Positions 15,725-22,831 are shown, counted from the stretch's first letter. The stretch: 61,470 bases of DNA from Pseudomonadales bacterium (GCA_020632235.1 JACKFY010000003.1:160139-221608), one strand, 5' to 3'. The notes: generated from the letters alone by a model not told the origin. A program made the numbers and translations.

Positions 15725-15937
15725 GTGGCAGGAATTTCTAAAGATATTAAGGCCGAAATCATAGCCAAGGTAAAGGCAGGGCAAAAAGTGGCGGATTTAG
15801 CCAAGGCGTATGGAATTAGCACTAAAACCATCTATAACTGGCTGCGAGGTCAAGTAAAAGAGCAGGTGTCTATGGGGAATACAAACGGTAATGAAGAAAC
15901 CAACAACTTAAGGCAAATACTTGAGTTCTCACACTGA
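15725..15937 (+). CDS. IS3-family OrfA (HTH)
   Basis: KVADLAKAYGISTKTIYNW helix-turn-helix. Confidence 0.8.
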   Translation: MAGISKDIKAEIIAKVKAGQKVADLAKAYGISTKTIYNWLRGQVKEQVSMGNTNGNEETNNLRQILEFSH

Positions 15938-16198
15938 ACCAGAAGTCAAAAAAAAGAACAGAAACTAGTACATTACTTTTGGAAGCACTGCCACATCTGG
16001 ATAAAACTCTCTTGGCGGATGCTCTTGGTATTTTAGGTAGTGGTTGTACAAAACAGATTTTATTCAGGTGAAAAAAGACAAGCAGTTAAAGCAACAAATT
16101 GAGGAGGTGTAGAGCCCTCACCCAGAGCAAAGCCAGTTATATGGCTACCGCAGGTTAGCAATTGAACTAGGAGTTGGTAAGAAGGAATTCGCAGATGT

Positions 16199-16826
16199 AT
16201 GAAGAAATATGGCTTGAGGCCATACAAAAGAAAAGCCAGATGGCGAAAAAGAAGAGATGAACAAAGAAAGCCAGTAGCTTTTGCAAACGAGATTAAAAAC
16301 CAGTGTCCACTAGTACCCAACCACACTTGGGCTGGAGATTTTACATACTTGCCATTTAAGGGCAAGTTTATCTACGTAGCTACTTTCTATGGATATTTTT
16401 ACCAGAGAGATAGTGGCTTGGCAAATATCCGATAGACATGACAAAACATTGGTTAATGCAAGCCTTTTAGATGGCTTAGTTAACCGAGACTTCCAGAAAC
16501 CAATATACATCCACTCTGACCAAGGAGCAGAATATTGTTCCCAAGATTACACTTGATTTAGTGAAGAATTTTGGGGTTAGCAATTTCCATGAGTACCAAG
16601 GCTTCTCCCTGGGAAAATGGTTACCAAGAATCCTTTTACAACAACTTTAAAACTGACTTAGGCCTTGAGTTTGACCGCTTCGACGATGAAGGGCACTTTC
16701 TGGAAGCAATACACCACACCCTTTAGAGCTACAACCATGAAAGAATTCACTCTGCCTTGAAAATGCCACCCTCCAGATTCCATGCCAAGTATTTACAATC
16801 CGTGTCTACGAAAAGGGGCGCTTGAC
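16199..16826 (+). pseudogene. IS3-family OrfB DDE integrase core, split by several frameshifts
   Basis: PNHTWAGDFTYL, IHSDQGAEY, PWENGYQESFYNNFK and RIHSALK occur in different frames. Confidence 0.8.
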
Positions 16827-16906
16827 AATGTGCTATTAAATTTCGTTATTATAACGCATCAATATCAATTCCCGTAAGTTCTTTTATTTTTAATTTTGAT
16901 CCATTA

Positions 16907-17368
16907 TCAATAGCTTGTAAAGCTATACAGAGATTTTATTGTTACTCCATGGTCTCCTTCCGATGGCGATAAATACCTTTCCTCAGACAAGCCTAATACT
17001 ATTCCAGGACCAAGTGTAGTGGTGGTAATTCCCAGTTTTTGAAGCTTTATAATCAATGTTTCTTTTCTTCCAATACTTGCCATTCCGCTATCTGTTAACG
17101 CATAAGGTCTAGCTAGTTGGGGGTCTGTTTCTACATGCATGGTTCGTGCATCTCTATTAAGTAAATAACTACCTTCGGCAATATCCAACAACAATGATCC
17201 CAAATTAACACCTCTAAAATAAAGCGAAGTACTGGGATCATAAGCTTCAAAAACTTGTGAATCATCGACTTTTTTCAGAATTTGAAATGCTGCATCAACA
17301 ATACTAATTCTAGTTTGTCTCTCCGGAATACCACCTTGATCAAAATTAAAAATATTGCCTTTACTCAT
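16907..17368 (-). CDS. Cassette 6: hypothetical protein
   Basis: 153-aa ORF starting about 35 nt after the attC5 core; no family recognised; the true end may be 16849 (..LQAIDNGSKLKIKELTGIDIDAL*) if frameshifted. Confidence 0.65.
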   Translation of the reverse strand: MSKGNIFNFDQGGIPERQTRISIVDAAFQILKKVDDSQVFEAYDPSTSLYFRGVNLGSLLLDIAEGSYLLNRDARTMHVETDPQLARPYALTDSGMASIGRKETLIIKLQKLGITTTTLGPGIVLGLSEERYLSPSEGDHGVTIKSLYSFTSY

Positions 17369-17402
17369 ATTACTTTACATATTGGTAAATTTAATAGCAT
17401 TT

Positions 17403-17537
17403 CATATAACGTTTTGCAGCTACCCGAAGGTGGCGATTTCGAAGCACTTCACTGTCAGCTAAGCACAAACTTTGATAGAGGCACAAAGCTTGATTTAACC
17501 ACTGAACCGCCACTTTTGGGTAGGTGCTGTTATGGGC
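17403..17537 (-). repeat. attC-like site 5
   Basis: R'' GCCCATAAC (17537-17529, contains the CPBP stop TAA), R' GTTATATG (17410-17403); arms CTACCCAAAAGTGGCG / CTACCCGAAGGTGGCG, 14/16. Confidence 0.9.
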
Positions 17538-18346
17538 TGGTGTTCTTCTCGCGTTCATTTGTCGCTAAATTTTTTGGCTTAAAAATAATGATTGTCAAAA
17601 TACCCCAAACTGTTATTAAAAATCCCATATAGTTCACGATATTTTTGTCGGCAAGGTCTGCTGTGAATGCGATGTCTATGGTTGAGTGAAAAAAAACAGC
17701 ACAAATTAAAATACTTGCTCTGGATGAGTTGTAAAGCCAAGTCAATAAAATACTTCCTGTCAATAGGCTAAATGTCCAGCCGAATATGCCTGCAAAATCC
17801 ATTGAAGTGTAACCTGGTCTGTAAAAGAAAAGTGGCCAATGCCAAACAGCCCAGAATATTGTCAAAATGATACTTGAAGTCAAAGCATTAAACTTGTCTT
17901 GAAACCTTGGCAATGCAAAACCCCGCCAACCAACTTCTTCTCCAAGTCCAAAGAAGATTAAGTTATAAATGAAAAATGTCAACAAGTTGAATTGAGGAAA
18001 CTCTTTTGAAGTTAAAAGACCCGAAATATTGATAGGCGAGTTATCAACGAAGTAGTTTATGATTGTCGCAATGAAAACGAGTAAGAATGGACTTAAAAGT
18101 GCGATTGCAAAATAAATTAGCGGTCTAACTTGTAAGCACTTTTTAATCAAACTTTTTACACCTTCGTTATTTTGAAACATCCAAGTTGTAAGAAATTAAA
18201 GCCGATTAACGGACCAAGTCCACCAAGTCCGTGGTAATAAGCAAGGTCGGCAAATTTGTCAACCCCAAAATGTGTCCATATAGCGGAAGCCAAATTGTCC
18301 AACTGATTAAATATGCAAGTCCGAAATATGTTATTAGTTGTTTCAT
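17530..18346 (-). pseudogene. Cassette 5: CPBP/Abi (CAAX-protease-like) intramembrane metalloprotease, two 5' frameshifts
   Basis: EEVGWRG, WAVWHWP, H motifs; N-terminus MKQLITYFGLAYLISWTIW starts at 18346 in another frame; stop lies inside R''. Confidence 0.85.
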
Positions 18347-18377
18347 TTCTTTTTAAACTCTGTCGTCACTTACACTT

Positions 18378-18518
18378 GCCCATAACGGTTGGGCGGTAAG
18401 GTATGAGTAGTGGCGGATTACGGAGCACTTTCCTGTCAAGATACGATGAACTTGATGCGAGGTAGAACGCCTGAATACGCTACAGCCCCCGCCATTACTT
18501 ATACACGATGTTATGGGC
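18378..18518 (-). repeat. attC-like site 4
   Basis: R'' GCCCATAAC (18518-18510), R' GTTATGGGC (18386-18378); arms GTATAAGTAATGGCGG / GTATGAGTAGTGGCGG, 14/16. Confidence 0.9.
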
Positions 18519-18537
18519 TGGGCTTCTTTTTCTGTCG

Positions 18538-19167
18538 TCAATAACTATACTTGTCATTCAGTCCTATTCCGTTAAAAATCTGTTCTTTGTATTTCTCAAT
18601 TCGACCAATTCTTGTTTGTGATTGCTTGGGTTGTGAAAAATGAATGATATAGCCCCTTTGTCGTCCAGCTGTTAATGCGTAAAATGCTTTCTTAAATGCA
18701 GGGTCTTGTTCAAATGCTTCAAGAAGTTCGTTAGGAATTGGTTCAGGGTTTTTCTTAAACTCTACTTTTTTTCCGCTTTCTTCAATTTCTATTGCTTCCA
18801 AAACGTATTCTTTTAAAACATCTTTTACTTTCTCTATGTCTTTAACATTGGTGAATTTTATAATTCTGTCTGACTGCAAATTTCCTTGTTGTTGGAGTAT
18901 TTTATGTTTGTCAGTCAATAATACTCCTTTGAAAAAGCCAATGTTTGCCGATTCCTTCAATGCACCCACAGAAACAATGTTTTTCCCTTTATGCGTATAG
19001 ACTGGTGCTCCCCATTTTATTTCTTCTGTCAAACCTGTTTCTAAAACAATTTGTCTAAGCATTTCCAATTCTTCACGCCAATTATGGACTTTGCATTGTG
19101 GCGTTCCGCCATACTTACAACGCATACAGCCGTCAATAAGATATTTGTCTACTTGTGGGTTCATCAT
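18538..19167 (-). CDS. Cassette 4 gene 2: DUF1801 plus YdeI/OmpD-associated domain protein
   Basis: EEIKWGAPVY, IGFFKGVLL, AFYALTAGRQRGY, TR..RIEK. Confidence 0.85.
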   Translation of the reverse strand: MMNPQVDKYLIDGCMRCKYGGTPQCKVHNWREELEMLRQIVLETGLTEEIKWGAPVYTHKGKNIVSVGALKESANIGFFKGVLLTDKHKILQQQGNLQSDRIIKFTNVKDIEKVKDVLKEYVLEAIEIEESGKKVEFKKNPEPIPNELLEAFEQDPAFKKAFYALTAGRQRGYIIHFSQPKQSQTRIGRIEKYKEQIFNGIGLNDKYSY

Positions 19168-19540
19168 TTTGTTAGAAGGTTTAATCTGTATTCAATCATT
19201 TTGATAATCAGTTCTTCGGGCAAAGGTTTATTTATAGGGAACAGAACAGAACCTTTACCTTTTTTGTAATCTTTTAATTCTTCATCAAATTTCTCAATTG
19301 TAGTGGGGTGAGGATAAAGTCCAACGTGATTTTATAACCTGCCATCATAATTTGTTGTTCTCTTTTTCCATTTTTTATTAGGGCATACGCTGGAATATTA
19401 TAATTCAATAATTCTTCTGCATCTGGAACAACCTTAAAAATACACTGTCTAATTTGAAGTAATGTATTTTTTACCTTTTCAGGTTGCGAATGGAAGTAAT
19501 CTTCTACTGAATTTATTTTTGCACTATTGTCCATAAGCAT
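19164..19540 (-). pseudogene. Cassette 4 gene 1: DUF1801 (YdhG-like) protein, one frameshift
   Basis: VEDYF, LLQIRQCI, YNIPAY; adding one A restores YKNHVGLYPHP..GKGSVLFP..KPLP and a stop overlapping the next ATG. Confidence 0.8.
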
Positions 19541-19581
19541 TTTAAATTATCCGTTTTTTCAACTGTCTGTCGTTTAGCCTT

Positions 19582-19654
19582 GCCCATAACGGTCGCGTGT
19601 ATGTGGCGTAGCCTGCCGATAGGTGGCTATGACATATACACAGTGTTAGGTAGC
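19582..19654 (-). repeat. attC-like site 3 (short, 73 bp)
   Basis: R'' GCTACCTAAC (19654-19645), R' GTTATGGGC (19590-19582); arms GTATATGTCATAGCC / GTATGTGGCGTAGCC, 12/15. Confidence 0.88.
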
Positions 19655-19669
19655 GTTTTTTTTACTTTT

Positions 19670-19963
19670 TTAGGTTAATAATCCGCAAATCAGCCCACCA
19701 ATTAACCCCAATGCCATTATTGGTTTAAATGCCTTCGTTATCAAAGCATCTGGAAAACTCATTACTCCGCCAATTATTAATCCCTTCAACCAACCCTGTA
19801 TTGGCAAGTCAATGTTGAAAATAATAAACCCAATAGAAAACCTATTTACAAATGAAGCAATAATTGCTTTTTGCTTATCTTCAAATTCCATAAAGAACAT
19901 TGGTATTATTGAGGTAATTCCAAAAATTGTCCCAGCAATCAAACCTTTGATAATATTATTCAT
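19670..19963 (-). CDS. Cassette 3 gene 2: small membrane protein of unknown function
   Basis: 97 aa, about 4 Gly-rich TM segments; ends just before R'' of attC3. Confidence 0.75.
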   Translation of the reverse strand: MNNIIKGLIAGTIFGITSIIPMFFMEFEDKQKAIIASFVNRFSIGFIIFNIDLPIQGWLKGLIIGGVMSFPDALITKAFKPIMALGLIGGLICGLLT

Positions 19964-19967
19964 ATTT

Positions 19968-20312
19968 TCAACTTTTTAATTCGTAGGCAGATTTAGCCAA
20001 CTTATCAATTCTTTGTCAACATCATTAAGTTTTTCCAATTTAACTATATGCTTAAATCTGTTAGCAGATATTTTTTCAATTTTTTGTATTCTTTCACTCT
20101 CAATTTCAAAGTTTGTGTGAATTTTCAACAAGAGGTAGTTTTTCCGTGAGTAAACTCCAGCAAATCCCGATTTACTGTCCAAATGAATGCTTGACTTTTT
20201 AGGTAATTGAGTTACTGTTCCAAATTTTTTCGCATTCGGTTATTAGTTTCTCGTAGATTTTGGAAACTATTGGTTCTTTATTTATCAAGTGGTCATTAAC
20301 CGTATATTCCAT
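19968..20312 (-). pseudogene. Cassette 3 gene 1: DUF5655-like protein, two homopolymer frameshifts
   Basis: Reconstructed MEYTVNDHLINKEPIVSKIYEKL..PKKSSIHL..FAGVYSRK..HIVKLEKLNDVDKELISWLKSAY. Confidence 0.7.
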
Positions 20313-20331
20313 TTGTTTGTTTTTTCGTAAT

Positions 20332-20467
20332 GCTACCTAACGTTTTGAATATGGTGCGTTTGGCATTTTGAAACACGTCATTTTCAAACTACTATTATTT
20401 TTTATTAATTGCTATAAACTTCATTTTTTGCACTTTCTGCCAAATGCACTATATTTTTGTTAGCTGC
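20332..20467 (-). repeat. attC-like site 2
   Basis: R'' GCAGCTAAC (20467-20459), R' GTTAGGTAGC (20341-20332); arms ATATAGTGCATTTGGCA / ATATGGTGCGTTTGGCA, 15/17. Confidence 0.9.
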
Positions 20468-20472
20468 AGGTA

Positions 20473-21049
20473 TTACTTTAATTCTCTTCCTAATTTTTCA
20501 ACTTTGTTAACCAACTTTTTCTTTTTGTACATCTGTTGAACTTTTAACAGGTCCAAAAGTTGTTATTTTCACGGGTTTAATGCCAACAAAAACTCCAAAA
20601 TCGACTTTTTCATTGAATTATGTCCAGGCTTTTATAAATCAATGAATAATACCAATTTGGTGTGTCAGTCGTTACAATTAATCTTGCAGTTTTTCAGTTA
20701 ATAGTTTTTGAGAACGGTGATTTCTCTTGGTATTCAAAAGCAAATCCAGGCAGAAACAATCTCATCAAAAATCTTTTAACAACGCAGGATAAGTCCCCCA
20801 CCAATTGGGATAAACGAAAACCAAATGATCAGCTTTTGTTATTAAATCCCATACTTTTTGTAAGTCTGGTTCCAAATCTGTTCGTTTTCTGTACCCATAT
20901 TTTAATACAGGCGAAAATTCTAAATCTGTGAGGTTAATAATTTCACATTCTGTTTCGGACTTATCTACTCCTGTTTTGTATTTTTCTGCCAATGAAGTGC
21001 AAAAACTCTCTTTGTCAGGATGTCCATTAATTATCAATATTCGTTTCAT
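20473..21049 (-). pseudogene. Cassette 2: NAD(P)H:quinone oxidoreductase (flavodoxin_2/MdaB-like), several frameshifts
   Basis: ILIINGHP, ADHLVFVYPNWWGTYPALLK; the downstream LFLPGFAF, KTARLIVTTDTP and GIKPVKIT segments lie in shifted frames. Confidence 0.85.
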
Positions 21050-21078
21050 ACTTACTGTCCTTTATATTGGTTTTACTT

Positions 21079-21223
21079 GCAGCTAACGTTTGCGTGTATG
21101 AGAAGTTTCGCACACAACCTTAATTTTATCAATTAAATGTGCGAAATTTGGGAGAAAGAAAAAGTGCAACCTTTGAAAATTACTAACGCACTTTTTCTTG
21201 AACCTTATACACGCTGTTATATG
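21079..21223 (-). repeat. attC-like site 1
   Basis: R'' CATATAAC (21223-21216), R' GTTAGCTGC (21087-21079); arms GCGTGTATAAG / GCGTGTATGAG. Confidence 0.88.
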
Positions 21224-21243
21224 ACGTATTGCTCAGACCCCTA

Positions 21244-21840
21244 TTAGTAGAGATTAAATTTGTCTAAATGATCTCTAATTCTAAAAAATATTTTTTTGTG
21301 ACCTTCTGAAGTCGGATGTAAGCCATCGTCTAAATCAGTTTCATTAATTACATCAAAGGTTGGAATAAAATGGACGTTTTGTTGGGATGAAATTTTTGCA
21401 ATTGCTTCATCGTATTTTTTTAGCGTTTCGTTCTTGTAGTACTTTTTCTTGTCACGGAGGTAAACAGCGTTGATTTTTTCCTCATCAACTTTTGTTAAAC
21501 CAACTAAAATAATATGAGAAGTGTAGGATCTGGCCATATCAACAAGCTCTTCAAAATTTTTGATTGTATCTTCGAGATTGACTCTATATTTCTTCTCATC
21601 AGTAAAATACTGTGAATCGTTGCCGGCAATTGCAAAAATTATTATTTCGGGTTTACGTGGCTTACATTCGTTATTAAACCTTTGAAGCAGGTCATTAGTA
21701 TCGTCTCCAGAAATACCAAGGTTAAAAATAAAAATGCCTTTTCCAAGAAGATATCTCTTTAGAAGGTCACACCAGCCGCCTTCTTTAAAGTCGTTCATGC
21801 CGCTGGTAATACTGGCTCCAAATACACAGGCTTTCTTCAT
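21244..21840 (-). CDS. Cassette 1: SGNH/GDSL hydrolase
   Basis: Block I FGASIT, block II NLGISG, block III GND, block V DGLHP; intact. Confidence 0.9.
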   Translation of the reverse strand: MKKACVFGASITSGMNDFKEGGWCDLLKRYLLGKGIFIFNLGISGDDTNDLLQRFNNECKPRKPEIIIFAIAGNDSQYFTDEKKYRVNLEDTIKNFEELVDMARSYTSHIILVGLTKVDEEKINAVYLRDKKKYYKNETLKKYDEAIAKISSQQNVHFIPTFDVINETDLDDGLHPTSEGHKKIFFRIRDHLDKFNLY

Positions 21841-21904
21841 AAAAAATATTTTTTAGAATTGTTTGTAAGATAAACTTTCATTTACGGTTGTCTGAGCAAT
21901 ATTT

Positions 21905-21966
21905 CATATAACACTTGTCTATACGAACCTTTTGTAACTAAAAGTTAGTATAGACAAGATATCAAC
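21905..21966 (-). other. attI-like primary recombination site with adjacent hairpin
   Basis: Core GTTATATG (21912-21905) matches R'' of attC1; no inverse core upstream; perfect 11-bp inverted repeat at 21914-21924 / 21948-21958. Confidence 0.7.
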
Positions 21967-21988: not shown

Positions 21989-22831
21989 ATGGTAAAAACG
22001 GATATTACGAACTTTAGGAAGAAGATGAAGATTCAGCGGTACTCCCCTCGTACCGTCAAAATATACTGCTCGCATGTTGCGCAGTTTTTCGCACATAGAC
22101 AACTGCAACCGAATCAAGTCACAAAAATAAATATCGAAGAGTATGTAGCGTTTTGCATTGACCAGAAAAACATCGCGTTTTCAACCCAAAAAGGCATCGT
22201 GGGTGCAATCAAGCTCTTTTACACATTATGCTATAACAGAAACCTGCACATCGACTACATCTACCCCAAACGAAAAGAGTATAAGATGCCCACAGTACTC
22301 TCACAAAATGAAGTAGCCCTACTACTCAACGCGCCCACAAATCTCAAACATAAGACAATCTTAAGCCTTATATACAGCTGCGGACTCAGGCTCTCGGAGG
22401 TTGTCAATCTCAAAATAGCAGATATCGACTCAGCTCGCATGCTGATTCACATACGGGCAAGTAAAAATAACCGCGACAGAGACGTGATGCTCTCGCCCAA
22501 AATTCTCACACTGCTCAGAAGTTACTTTGCAGAGTACAAACCGACGGTTTATTTGTTTGAGGGGCAAAAAAGAGGCAAGTACTCCACTCGCTCTGTGCAA
22601 AAAGTTTTCAAAATAGCACTCGCAAATTCAGGCATCCAAAAGAGCGCGAGCGTGCATACTCTTCGTCATTCTTTTGCAACACATATGATAGAAAACGGCA
22701 TAGATGTACGCGTTGTCCAAGAGCTGCTCGGGCACAAAAATATCCAGACTACCCAACTCTACACGCACATCACTACCCACATGAAATCAAAGATAAAAAG
22801 TCCCTTTGACACGTTGCTTGCCTCAACTTAA
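21989..22831 (+). CDS. Tyrosine recombinase, integron-integrase-like (short form)
   Basis: N-terminal SAM-like region (YSPRTVKIY); catalytic R (YSCGLRLSE), K (SKNNRDR), HTLRH, LLGH, TTQLY; divergent from the cassette array. Confidence 0.92.
   Translation: MVKTDITNFRKKMKIQRYSPRTVKIYCSHVAQFFAHRQLQPNQVTKINIEEYVAFCIDQKNIAFSTQKGIVGAIKLFYTLCYNRNLHIDYIYPKRKEYKMPTVLSQNEVALLLNAPTNLKHKTILSLIYSCGLRLSEVVNLKIADIDSARMLIHIRASKNNRDRDVMLSPKILTLLRSYFAEYKPTVYLFEGQKRGKYSTRSVQKVFKIALANSGIQKSASVHTLRHSFATHMIENGIDVRVVQELLGHKNIQTTQLYTHITTHMKSKIKSPFDTLLAST

Follow-up and report, generated by a model that had tools for sequence, protein, structure and literature searches.

How are the hairpin sites of a gene-cassette array recognised when the adjoining recombinase appears to lack the domain that integron integrases use to read them? 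The question is raised by a 61,470-nucleotide (nt) stretch of DNA (61.5 kb, hereafter the window) assembled under the name Pseudomonadales bacterium (GCA_020632235.1, JACKFY010000003.1:160139-221608), in which a five-cassette array at 17397-21912 adjoins the gene of a 280-residue tyrosine recombinase. In the prevailing view of integrons, extrahelical bases (EHBs) on the folded attC strand and the I2 helix of the integrase together explain recognition of the folded strand, choice of the bottom strand and avoidance of a lethal second exchange. I2 is the domain that accommodates the EHBs (PMC4792948), and published attC sites carry these bases on the R''-L'' arm, with a spacer of 5 nt per arm and arms of 31 and 34 nt in the Vibrio VCR (PMC2727003).

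Here we report that comparison of related arrays and of predicted folds confirms the five hairpins of the window as genuine cassette recombination sites of a putative integron-like gene-capture system, in which the asymmetry of the textbook attC site is reversed.

Geometry of the five hairpin sites

The five sites, S1-S5, were named attC5-attC1, in the reverse order, in the original prediction for this locus. They were folded on both strands with DNA parameters, the AAC and GTT of the R box being forced to pair, and first loops are given as (5' nt, 3' nt). Bit scores refer to two family models, R1 and R2, described in the next section.

S1 (attC5), 17406..17533, + strand: typical 124-nt form; AAC 17408-10, G 17411, bulge TTTT 17412-15, TGTT 17528-31; first loop (4,0); R2 107.6 bits, E 9e-21.
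S2 (attC4), 18382..18514, + strand: AAC 18384-86, GTT 18510-12; loops (0,2) and (11,0); R2 68.3 bits with a 6-nt insertion relative to the model; bases 18391-18400 doubtful.
S3 (attC3), 19586..19649, + strand: short 64-nt form; AAC 19588-90, GTT 19645-47; loops (1,1) and (3,0); R1 48.4 bits, R2 40 bits.
S4 (attC2), 20337..20463, + strand: AAC 20339-41, 5' loop 20342-47, 3' loop 20456-58; first loop (6,3); R2 59.9 bits.
S5 (attC1), 21083..21220, + strand: AAC 21085-87, G 21088, bulge TTT 21089-91, TGTT 21215-18; first loop (3,0); R2 25.8 bits, E 0.0025.

Every window site reads, on the + strand, xxxxTAAC-G-(spacer)-stem and then stem-(spacer)-T-GTTAxxxx. Past the AAC/GTT R box and a G.T pair, the 5' (R') arm has 3-4 (up to 6) unpaired nt and the 3' (R'') arm 0-3, and beyond this first loop the stem is long and free of one-sided bulges; a 1-nt bulge on the 3' arm appears in none of the constrained DNA folds of S1-S5. 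With the R box enforced, the + strand, which is the non-coding strand of the cassettes, gives the more stable fold at every one of the five sites. In the window assembly the arms of S1-S5 differ by 4, 9, 3, 3 and 3 nt, and up to a conserved T:A landmark pair the 3' arm measures 5 nt and the 5' arm 7-9 nt.

The original prediction had placed the stem start 5 nt after R'' and 8, 8, 8, 14 and 9 nt before R' (attC1-5), with the unpaired extra bases on the L'-R' arm. Its arm differences match the folds exactly (9-5, 14-5, 8-5, 8-5 and 8-5 from S1 to S5), and the first loops of the constrained folds bear out the arm; the values of 5 and 8, on the other hand, include about 4 paired bp, and the value of 14 lacks read support.

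As a baseline, seven attC sites from class 1 integron arrays were passed through the same folding script in the same orientation. Their first loops are near-symmetric, at (5,4), (8,8), (2,1) and (2,2), the exception being the branched attC of aac(6')-29b. Bulges of 1 nt confined to the 3' arm are found in six of six class 1 sites, where two of them typically follow the near-symmetric spacer. The corresponding figure is 4 of 52 for sites of the family to which S1-S5 belong, in keeping with the earlier remark that no extrahelical base is evident on the R''-L'' arm. Since both the class 1 folds and the published definition show a near-symmetric spacer with 3'-arm bulges, the window sites are reversed in their asymmetry; the canonical layout of EHBs and unpaired central spacer (UCS) was not reproduced in the constrained folds of the five sites. 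An unpaired spacer of about 5 nt per arm, which serves as a strict integron criterion, is likewise not seen, the first loops being (4,0), (3,0) and (6,3) and the 5' excess in the family +2 to +4.

Two of the five values required correction. When the window was compared with short-read contigs from the probable source sample, many 1-nt indels were found within 17300-21950, 14 of them within 20314-21260. For S4, the short reads carry an extra T after 20453, on the 3' arm, which changes the difference to +2. For S2, none of the short-read contigs from four runs reaches across bases 18391-18400; contigs entering from the left run into a different site type, and those from the right, together with one spanning contig, read TAACGGTTACGTGTATGAG, which yields +3. 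S2 is also the lone outlier (+9) among 50 sites. Its 14-nt spacer is most likely an assembly chimera, and the value should be dropped.

A site family shared across phyla

Relatives of the recombinase, of about 277 residues, number in the thousands and occur in Bacteroidota, Ignavibacteriota, Kapabacteria, Balneolales, Cloacimonadota and candidate phyla. Homologues at 35-66% identity with adjoining arrays were found in L043, L046, L049, L050, L051, L053, L056, L031, L038 and other loci (our locus numbers); the loci with arrays belong to Bacteroidota, Ignavibacteriota, Balneolales and candidate phyla. The array is divergent from the recombinase gene, as in the window, in the first seven of these, and co-oriented and downstream of it in L031, L022, L011, L032 and L023.

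An unbiased scan for AACG...TGTT with a 10-bp stem, covering 732 kb, returned 110 matches, against 41 in shuffled sequence. The excess is confined to arm differences of +2 to +5, with 25 matches at +3 (about 2 in shuffles) and 20 at +4 (about 1.3). Every aligned site has AAC and GTT, both having been required by the scan that collected the sites. Complete sites number 50, drawn from the window and 23 further loci; in 7 the 5' arm is longer by +2, in 16 by +3 and in 26 by +4, which leaves only S2 outside this range. The bulge is T-rich throughout the family (G, T/G, T, T/C).

A first, trimmed model of 72 positions (R1) recovered only S3 and S2; it did not span the long loops, performed worse with filters off, and was replaced by R2, built from 27 full-length sites that all come from other genomes. 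Applied to the whole window, R2 returns exactly five matches, S1-S5, all on the + strand and scoring from 107.6 down to 25.8 bits, and it has no match in 52 kb of class 1 arrays. The search across genomes that had been suggested for such a model gave 51 sites in 53 sources.

The short enzyme and the site of reversed asymmetry occur together in every array examined. This co-occurrence, as a correlation, fits the earlier suggestion of a recognition code to which site and enzyme may have co-adapted. A literature search found no description of such arrays or of this site geometry, though other journals may hold one.

Several observations on individual members of the family are recorded here. The 124-nt class of sites (alignment A3, for example window 17436-17505) has a loop conserved across phyla with three GCAC-centred motifs, and its length of 122-127 nt is as uniform as that of the Vibrio VCRs. 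At L050, 2900-3154, a second attI copy with the first recombinase codons lies at the far end of the array and looks like a partial duplication of the platform. At L038, 6347-10302, sites of the same orientation flank the recombinase gene on both sides, as if the gene lay inside the array. L053 (3800-9800), as well as L054, contains cassettes for a LinB-type nucleotidyltransferase, a MerT/HMA protein and a cation-efflux protein, together with two copies of one TPR cassette bearing the same site; the platform would thus be able to carry resistance-type cargo and duplicated cassettes.

Stem covariation and strand bias

In the +3 register, 88% of the alignment cells are paired, compared with 32-47% when the partner is slid and 47% in the canonical register. 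Compensatory changes are seen in 17 of 18 stem pairs, and the covarying stem continues without interruption for about 18-20 bp beyond the bulge. Non-Watson-Crick stem positions in 45 family sites are G.T in 94 cases and A.C in 28 (p 1.6e-9, with the site-orienting pair left out), and the bottom strand gives the more stable fold in 50 of 52 family sites. Immediately 3' of the predicted crossover come a C, the G.T wobble pair and the T-rich bulge of 3-4 nt, which is restricted to the cleaved arm, at 2 nt from the crossover.

The attI site and the limits of the cassettes

Between the array and the recombinase gene lies one further site.

attI-position site, 21901..21966, + strand: R box cATATAAC with AAC at 21910-21912; conserved TATACGAAC at 21920-21928; hairpin arms 21914-21935 and 21937-21958.

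The motif AAC-N7-9-TAYACGMAA is common to this site and to L041, L050, L046, L043, L042, L008, L014 and L028. The long attI hairpin (21914-21958), unlike the motif, is confined to the lineage of the window; short inverted repeats of variable size surround the motif in relatives (L041, L050, L046, L043). L055 and L056 share the same recombinase and backbone and carry different cassettes, the two diverging exactly at the attI sequence gcacAAC|gtcttatttacgcaa upstream of the gene.

Across 17 pairs in eight arrays, complementarity between the 3' flank of one site and the 5' flank of its successor extends over 5.8 contiguous nt on average; between the two flanks of a single site it extends over 1.2 nt. 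It follows from the complementarity between flanks of successive sites that a circular cassette would rebuild an R box of 9-10 bp, although flank pairing alone is blind to whether a site body moves with the open reading frame (ORF) on its left or on its right. Read depth in the metagenome of the probable source sample is more specific, being about 21 over the backbone and about 500 over 19588-20341, with steps at the AAC of S3 and of S4. By these steps a cassette comprises a site body and the ORFs up to the next AAC. Further contig breaks fall at R boxes, at 18509-13, 20337-43, 21086, 21222-24 and 21909. A reversed layout, with the site before its ORF, was considered and is excluded by the depth step at 19588-20341 and by the attI end, flank pairing alone being insufficient. 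Apparent joints in metagenome contigs (for example 17534>19588 and 19590>21901) have short sides, correspond to no simple attC x attC product, and were not used as evidence of excision.

Judged by these comparisons, the system is canonical in its cassette limits, in its preference for the bottom strand and in the predicted crossover, which falls at R' on the 5' arm of that strand.

An Xer-sized recombinase without the I2 insertion

The gene next to the attI-position site is the following.

Tyrosine recombinase P0001, 280 residues, 21989..22831, + strand: Xer-sized, IntI/XerA-like, without the IntI-specific insertion (I2).

Its top NCBIfam model is XerA_Arch, a XerA/integron-integrase model (NF040815; 219 bits, cut-off 220). 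The IntI model TIGR02249 gives 196 bits against a cut-off of 265, in a match split into two stretches, while the XerD and XerC models give 182 and 176 bits against cut-offs of 330 and 335. The closest solved structures are of XerA, 5HXY (146 bits) and 4A8E (132 bits). In the alignment to the Vibrio integrase VchIntIA (2a3v), residues 8-181 correspond to 8-182 and residues 200-274 to 244-318, so that 18 residues replace 61; this gap and the split TIGR02249 match uphold the earlier impression that the enzyme has no I2 insertion. The tryptophan of the VchIntIA motif IRIWQGKG is aligned to an arginine, and the C-terminal SPFD resembles the SPLD of IntI. In one classification the insertion is "not fully conserved" within the integron-like subgroup (PMC8138268).

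Locus, cassettes and host

While the window as a whole has about 47% G+C, the island that holds the array is AT-rich (31-37% G+C), consists of small - strand ORFs with the five imperfect palindromes between them, and is flanked by a degenerate insertion-sequence remnant (15725-16826) and by the recombinase gene. By Pfam, the products of the cassette ORFs are a GDSL hydrolase, a flavodoxin-like protein, DUF5655, DUF1801/YdeI and CAAX protease proteins.

Cassette E, 21087..21911, - strand: S5 body and GDSL-type hydrolase ORF 21244-21840 (PF13472); 6-nt flank pairing with the attI flank.
Cassette D, 20341..21086, - strand: S4 body and an ORF of flavodoxin-like fold, broken in the window (PF02525).
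Cassette C, 19590..20340, - strand: S3 body, a 97-residue membrane ORF and a DUF5655 ORF; depth steps exactly at 19588 and 20341.
Cassette B, 18386..19589, - strand: S2 body, a DUF1801/YdeI ORF and a DUF1801 fragment (Pfam); unitig 18509-19590, depth 48.8.
Cassette A, 17410..18385, - strand: S1 body and a CAAX/Rce1-like protease ORF (PF02517).
Truncated sixth cassette, 16830..17409, - strand: 153-residue ORF 16907-17368; site removed by the insertion sequence.
Degenerate insertion-sequence remnant, 15725..16826, + strand: broken frames; terminates the array.

In the sixth cassette, gctattaaattt at 16830-16843 is an inverted copy of 17381-17396 and the sole surviving outer copy of the lost site. 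The remnant that ends the array is a putative IS3-family element, a label taken over from the original prediction. The frameshifted cassette ORFs (flavodoxin-like, DUF5655 and the DUF1801 fragment) are probably assembly errors and not decay; an alternative genetic code was tried and rejected, as table 25 leaves the frames unmended and the breaks are mostly 1-nt assembly indels. An Rfam scan of the window returned a tRNA as its single match, Rfam having no attC family.

Relatives of the housekeeping gene GltX place the host in Patescibacteria, and the sequencing runs that contain the stretch are activated-sludge and wastewater metagenomes. Summed depth is about 2800 for the S1-type site (17255-17505), about 500 for cassette C and about 21 for the host backbone, and many unrelated wastewater runs contain 26-42% of the island's words. 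Depth and word sharing across runs together indicate that cassette C and the S1 site type are present in many other, more abundant genomes.

Discussion

The system of the window shares much with classical integrons, represented here by class 1 arrays (attCaadA2/aadA7) and by the Vibrio VCR with VchIntIA (2A3V). In both, the recombinase gene is divergent with an attI-type site just upstream; the array lies on one strand, its cassettes are mostly promoterless and each ORF is followed by its own site; the sites are imperfect palindromes with AAC...GTT boxes and a G after the R' AAC; and the crossover at R', the bottom-strand folding bias and the C-terminal SP(L/F)D of the enzyme are alike. In contrast, the window enzyme has 18 residues in place of about 61, no I2, and an arginine for the tryptophan of IRIWQGKG, while its sites lack EHBs on the R''-L'' arm, have a long uninterrupted stem, and show, in place of the bubble of 5 x 5-6 nt, a bulge of 3-4 nt confined to the R' arm.

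In size and domain make-up the enzyme is like archaeal XerA and the bacterial XerC/XerD that act at dif. Unlike those systems, however, the window has an array of mobile cassettes, hairpin sites (64-190 nt) and a dedicated attI; a dif-type site, in which 11-bp arms enclose a spacer of 6-8 bp, is absent, and five or more hairpins of 64-138 nt bound the cassettes. Integration of the CTX phage, in which XerCD uses a folded single-stranded attP, provides a precedent for the use of such a substrate by an Xer enzyme without I2. The pdif modules of Acinetobacter plasmids are, like the cassettes here, discrete gene modules moved by an Xer-type recombinase, but pdif sites are 28-bp double-stranded XerC/XerD sites of alternating orientation, with no hairpin, attI or adjacent dedicated recombinase. 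The co-oriented ("reverse") integrons of Treponema and other Spirochaetota resemble the arrays of L031, L022, L011, L032 and L023, which are downstream of the recombinase gene and co-oriented with it; the array of the window is divergent, and the spirochaete IntI has the insertion (PMC9668308).

On this evidence we consider it probable that the sites are attC-equivalents of an integron-like platform run by a short IntI/XerA-like recombinase without I2, in which the one-sided bulge replaces the spacer-plus-EHB device. The bulge would then take on both jobs that canonical attC sites divide between a symmetric unpaired central spacer and EHBs read by I2. By kinking the hairpin beside the scissile phosphate it could set the active monomer and discourage reversal or a second strand exchange. 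It could also mark the strand, as a top-strand hairpin would have an A-rich bulge on the other arm and C.A mismatches in place of G.T pairs. The spacing on the cleaved arm (4-5 nt) is retained and the spacer of the other arm collapsed; a cleaved-arm spacing of 5 nt would match the AAC-N5 that, in attI, precedes a degenerate L box. As with integrons, replication would bring about resolution. When sites lose their EHBs by deletion, the UCS can suffice to dictate strand choice and polarity to IntI1 (PMC2727003), which together with the retained cleaved-arm spacing makes a bulge that acts as hinge and strand mark plausible.

Several points weigh against this proposal. The role of the bulge is deduced solely from its position and conservation, and with bulges of anything from 2 to 4 nt a readout would have to tolerate variation. 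Other conserved features could set the strand, namely the GCAC motifs of the loop and a G.T wobble that 13 of 19 sites have some 14 bp inside the stem. The sites used for covariation were selected by stem register and thus support the structure, not an unbiased register. The link between enzyme and site rests on a single contrast, with class 1 integrons, and the window assembly has indel errors in the island.

The alternative that survives best, possible though in our judgement unlikely, keeps the platform as described and takes the bulge to be a mere hinge, with strand choice and active-site exclusion left to other features, whether conserved G.T wobbles, loop GCAC motifs, the stem formed distally by AGTGGCGG/CCGCCATT, or a host protein acting as accessory factor. 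The variable bulge length, the G.T pair kept at stem position 27-49 in 13 of 19 sites and the loop sequence conserved across phyla (R2 alignment, A3) all speak for it. The bulge, however, is the sole feature found in every size class, including the 64-nt S3 with no long loop; it sits 2 nt from the crossover point; and spacer asymmetry alone can set polarity in IntI systems (PMC2727003).

It is very unlikely that the sites are ordinary attC sites served by a canonical IntI encoded elsewhere, the short recombinase being a housekeeping Xer that is adjacent by chance. The AAC/GTT boxes, bottom-strand bias and cassette layout are indeed canonical, and the enzyme falls only 1 bit below the XerA cut-off. 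Adjacency of gene and array is nevertheless repeated in many loci of several phyla, cassettes turn over exactly at the AAC upstream of the short gene, the geometry is unlike that of all seven class 1 sites tested, the family model matches no class 1 attC, and almost no IntI is reported in Bacteroidetes.

We regard as highly improbable a third possibility, that the sites act as double-stranded core sites of Xer/dif or pdif-module type whose hairpin potential is incidental. An Xer-sized enzyme would suit such sites, and integron integrases keep double-strand activity on attI (PMC4792948); yet the 94:28 bias of G.T over A.C is sensible only if one strand folds, stem pairs change in compensation (17 of 18), and inverted 11-bp arms around a spacer of 6-8 bp are absent from the junctions, the sites being 64-190 nt long. 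The least probable explanation, an artefact of poor assembly of the AT-rich island, could point to the 14 indels within 20314-21260, the unsupported 10-nt stretch in S2 and the one T too few in S4, but short-read contigs reproduce the 5' part of S1 exactly, the geometry recurs in 45 sites of independent assemblies, including isolate genomes, and the corrected S2 and S4 remain at +3 and +2.

The platform with its one-sided bulge, if correctly read, has consequences beyond this locus. We would put the chances about even that it represents a second integron lineage across Bacteroidota, Ignavibacteriota, Balneolales, Patescibacteria and perhaps more phyla, in which folded single-stranded sites are recombined without I2 or EHBs and a one-sided bulge of 3-4 nt, placed in the central spacer of the cleaved arm, encodes strand choice and active-site exclusion. 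If so, the I2/EHB device would be dispensable for hairpin cassette recombination, and a bulged-spacer, Xer-sized form could be the ancestral state behind IntI. Almost no integrons are recorded from Bacteroidetes by surveys in which the insertion defines an integrase; since these surveys identify integrases by the I2 domain, arrays of this kind would be scored at best as orphan clusters. The 124-nt site family, found both in the candidate-phyla genome of the window and in Bacteroidota, and one cassette at about 25 times the abundance of its host, suggest cassette exchange between phyla in activated sludge.

The window system shares the logic of integrons with neither EHBs nor I2, and it is widespread in phyla that surveys report as nearly empty. 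Its reversed asymmetry offers a concrete, mutable handle on strand selection without I2 and bears on the origin of integrases from Xer-like ancestors. The cassette pools of wastewater Bacteroidota and candidate phyla, which in L053 include LinB-type nucleotidyltransferase and metal-transport cassettes, may be under-counted.

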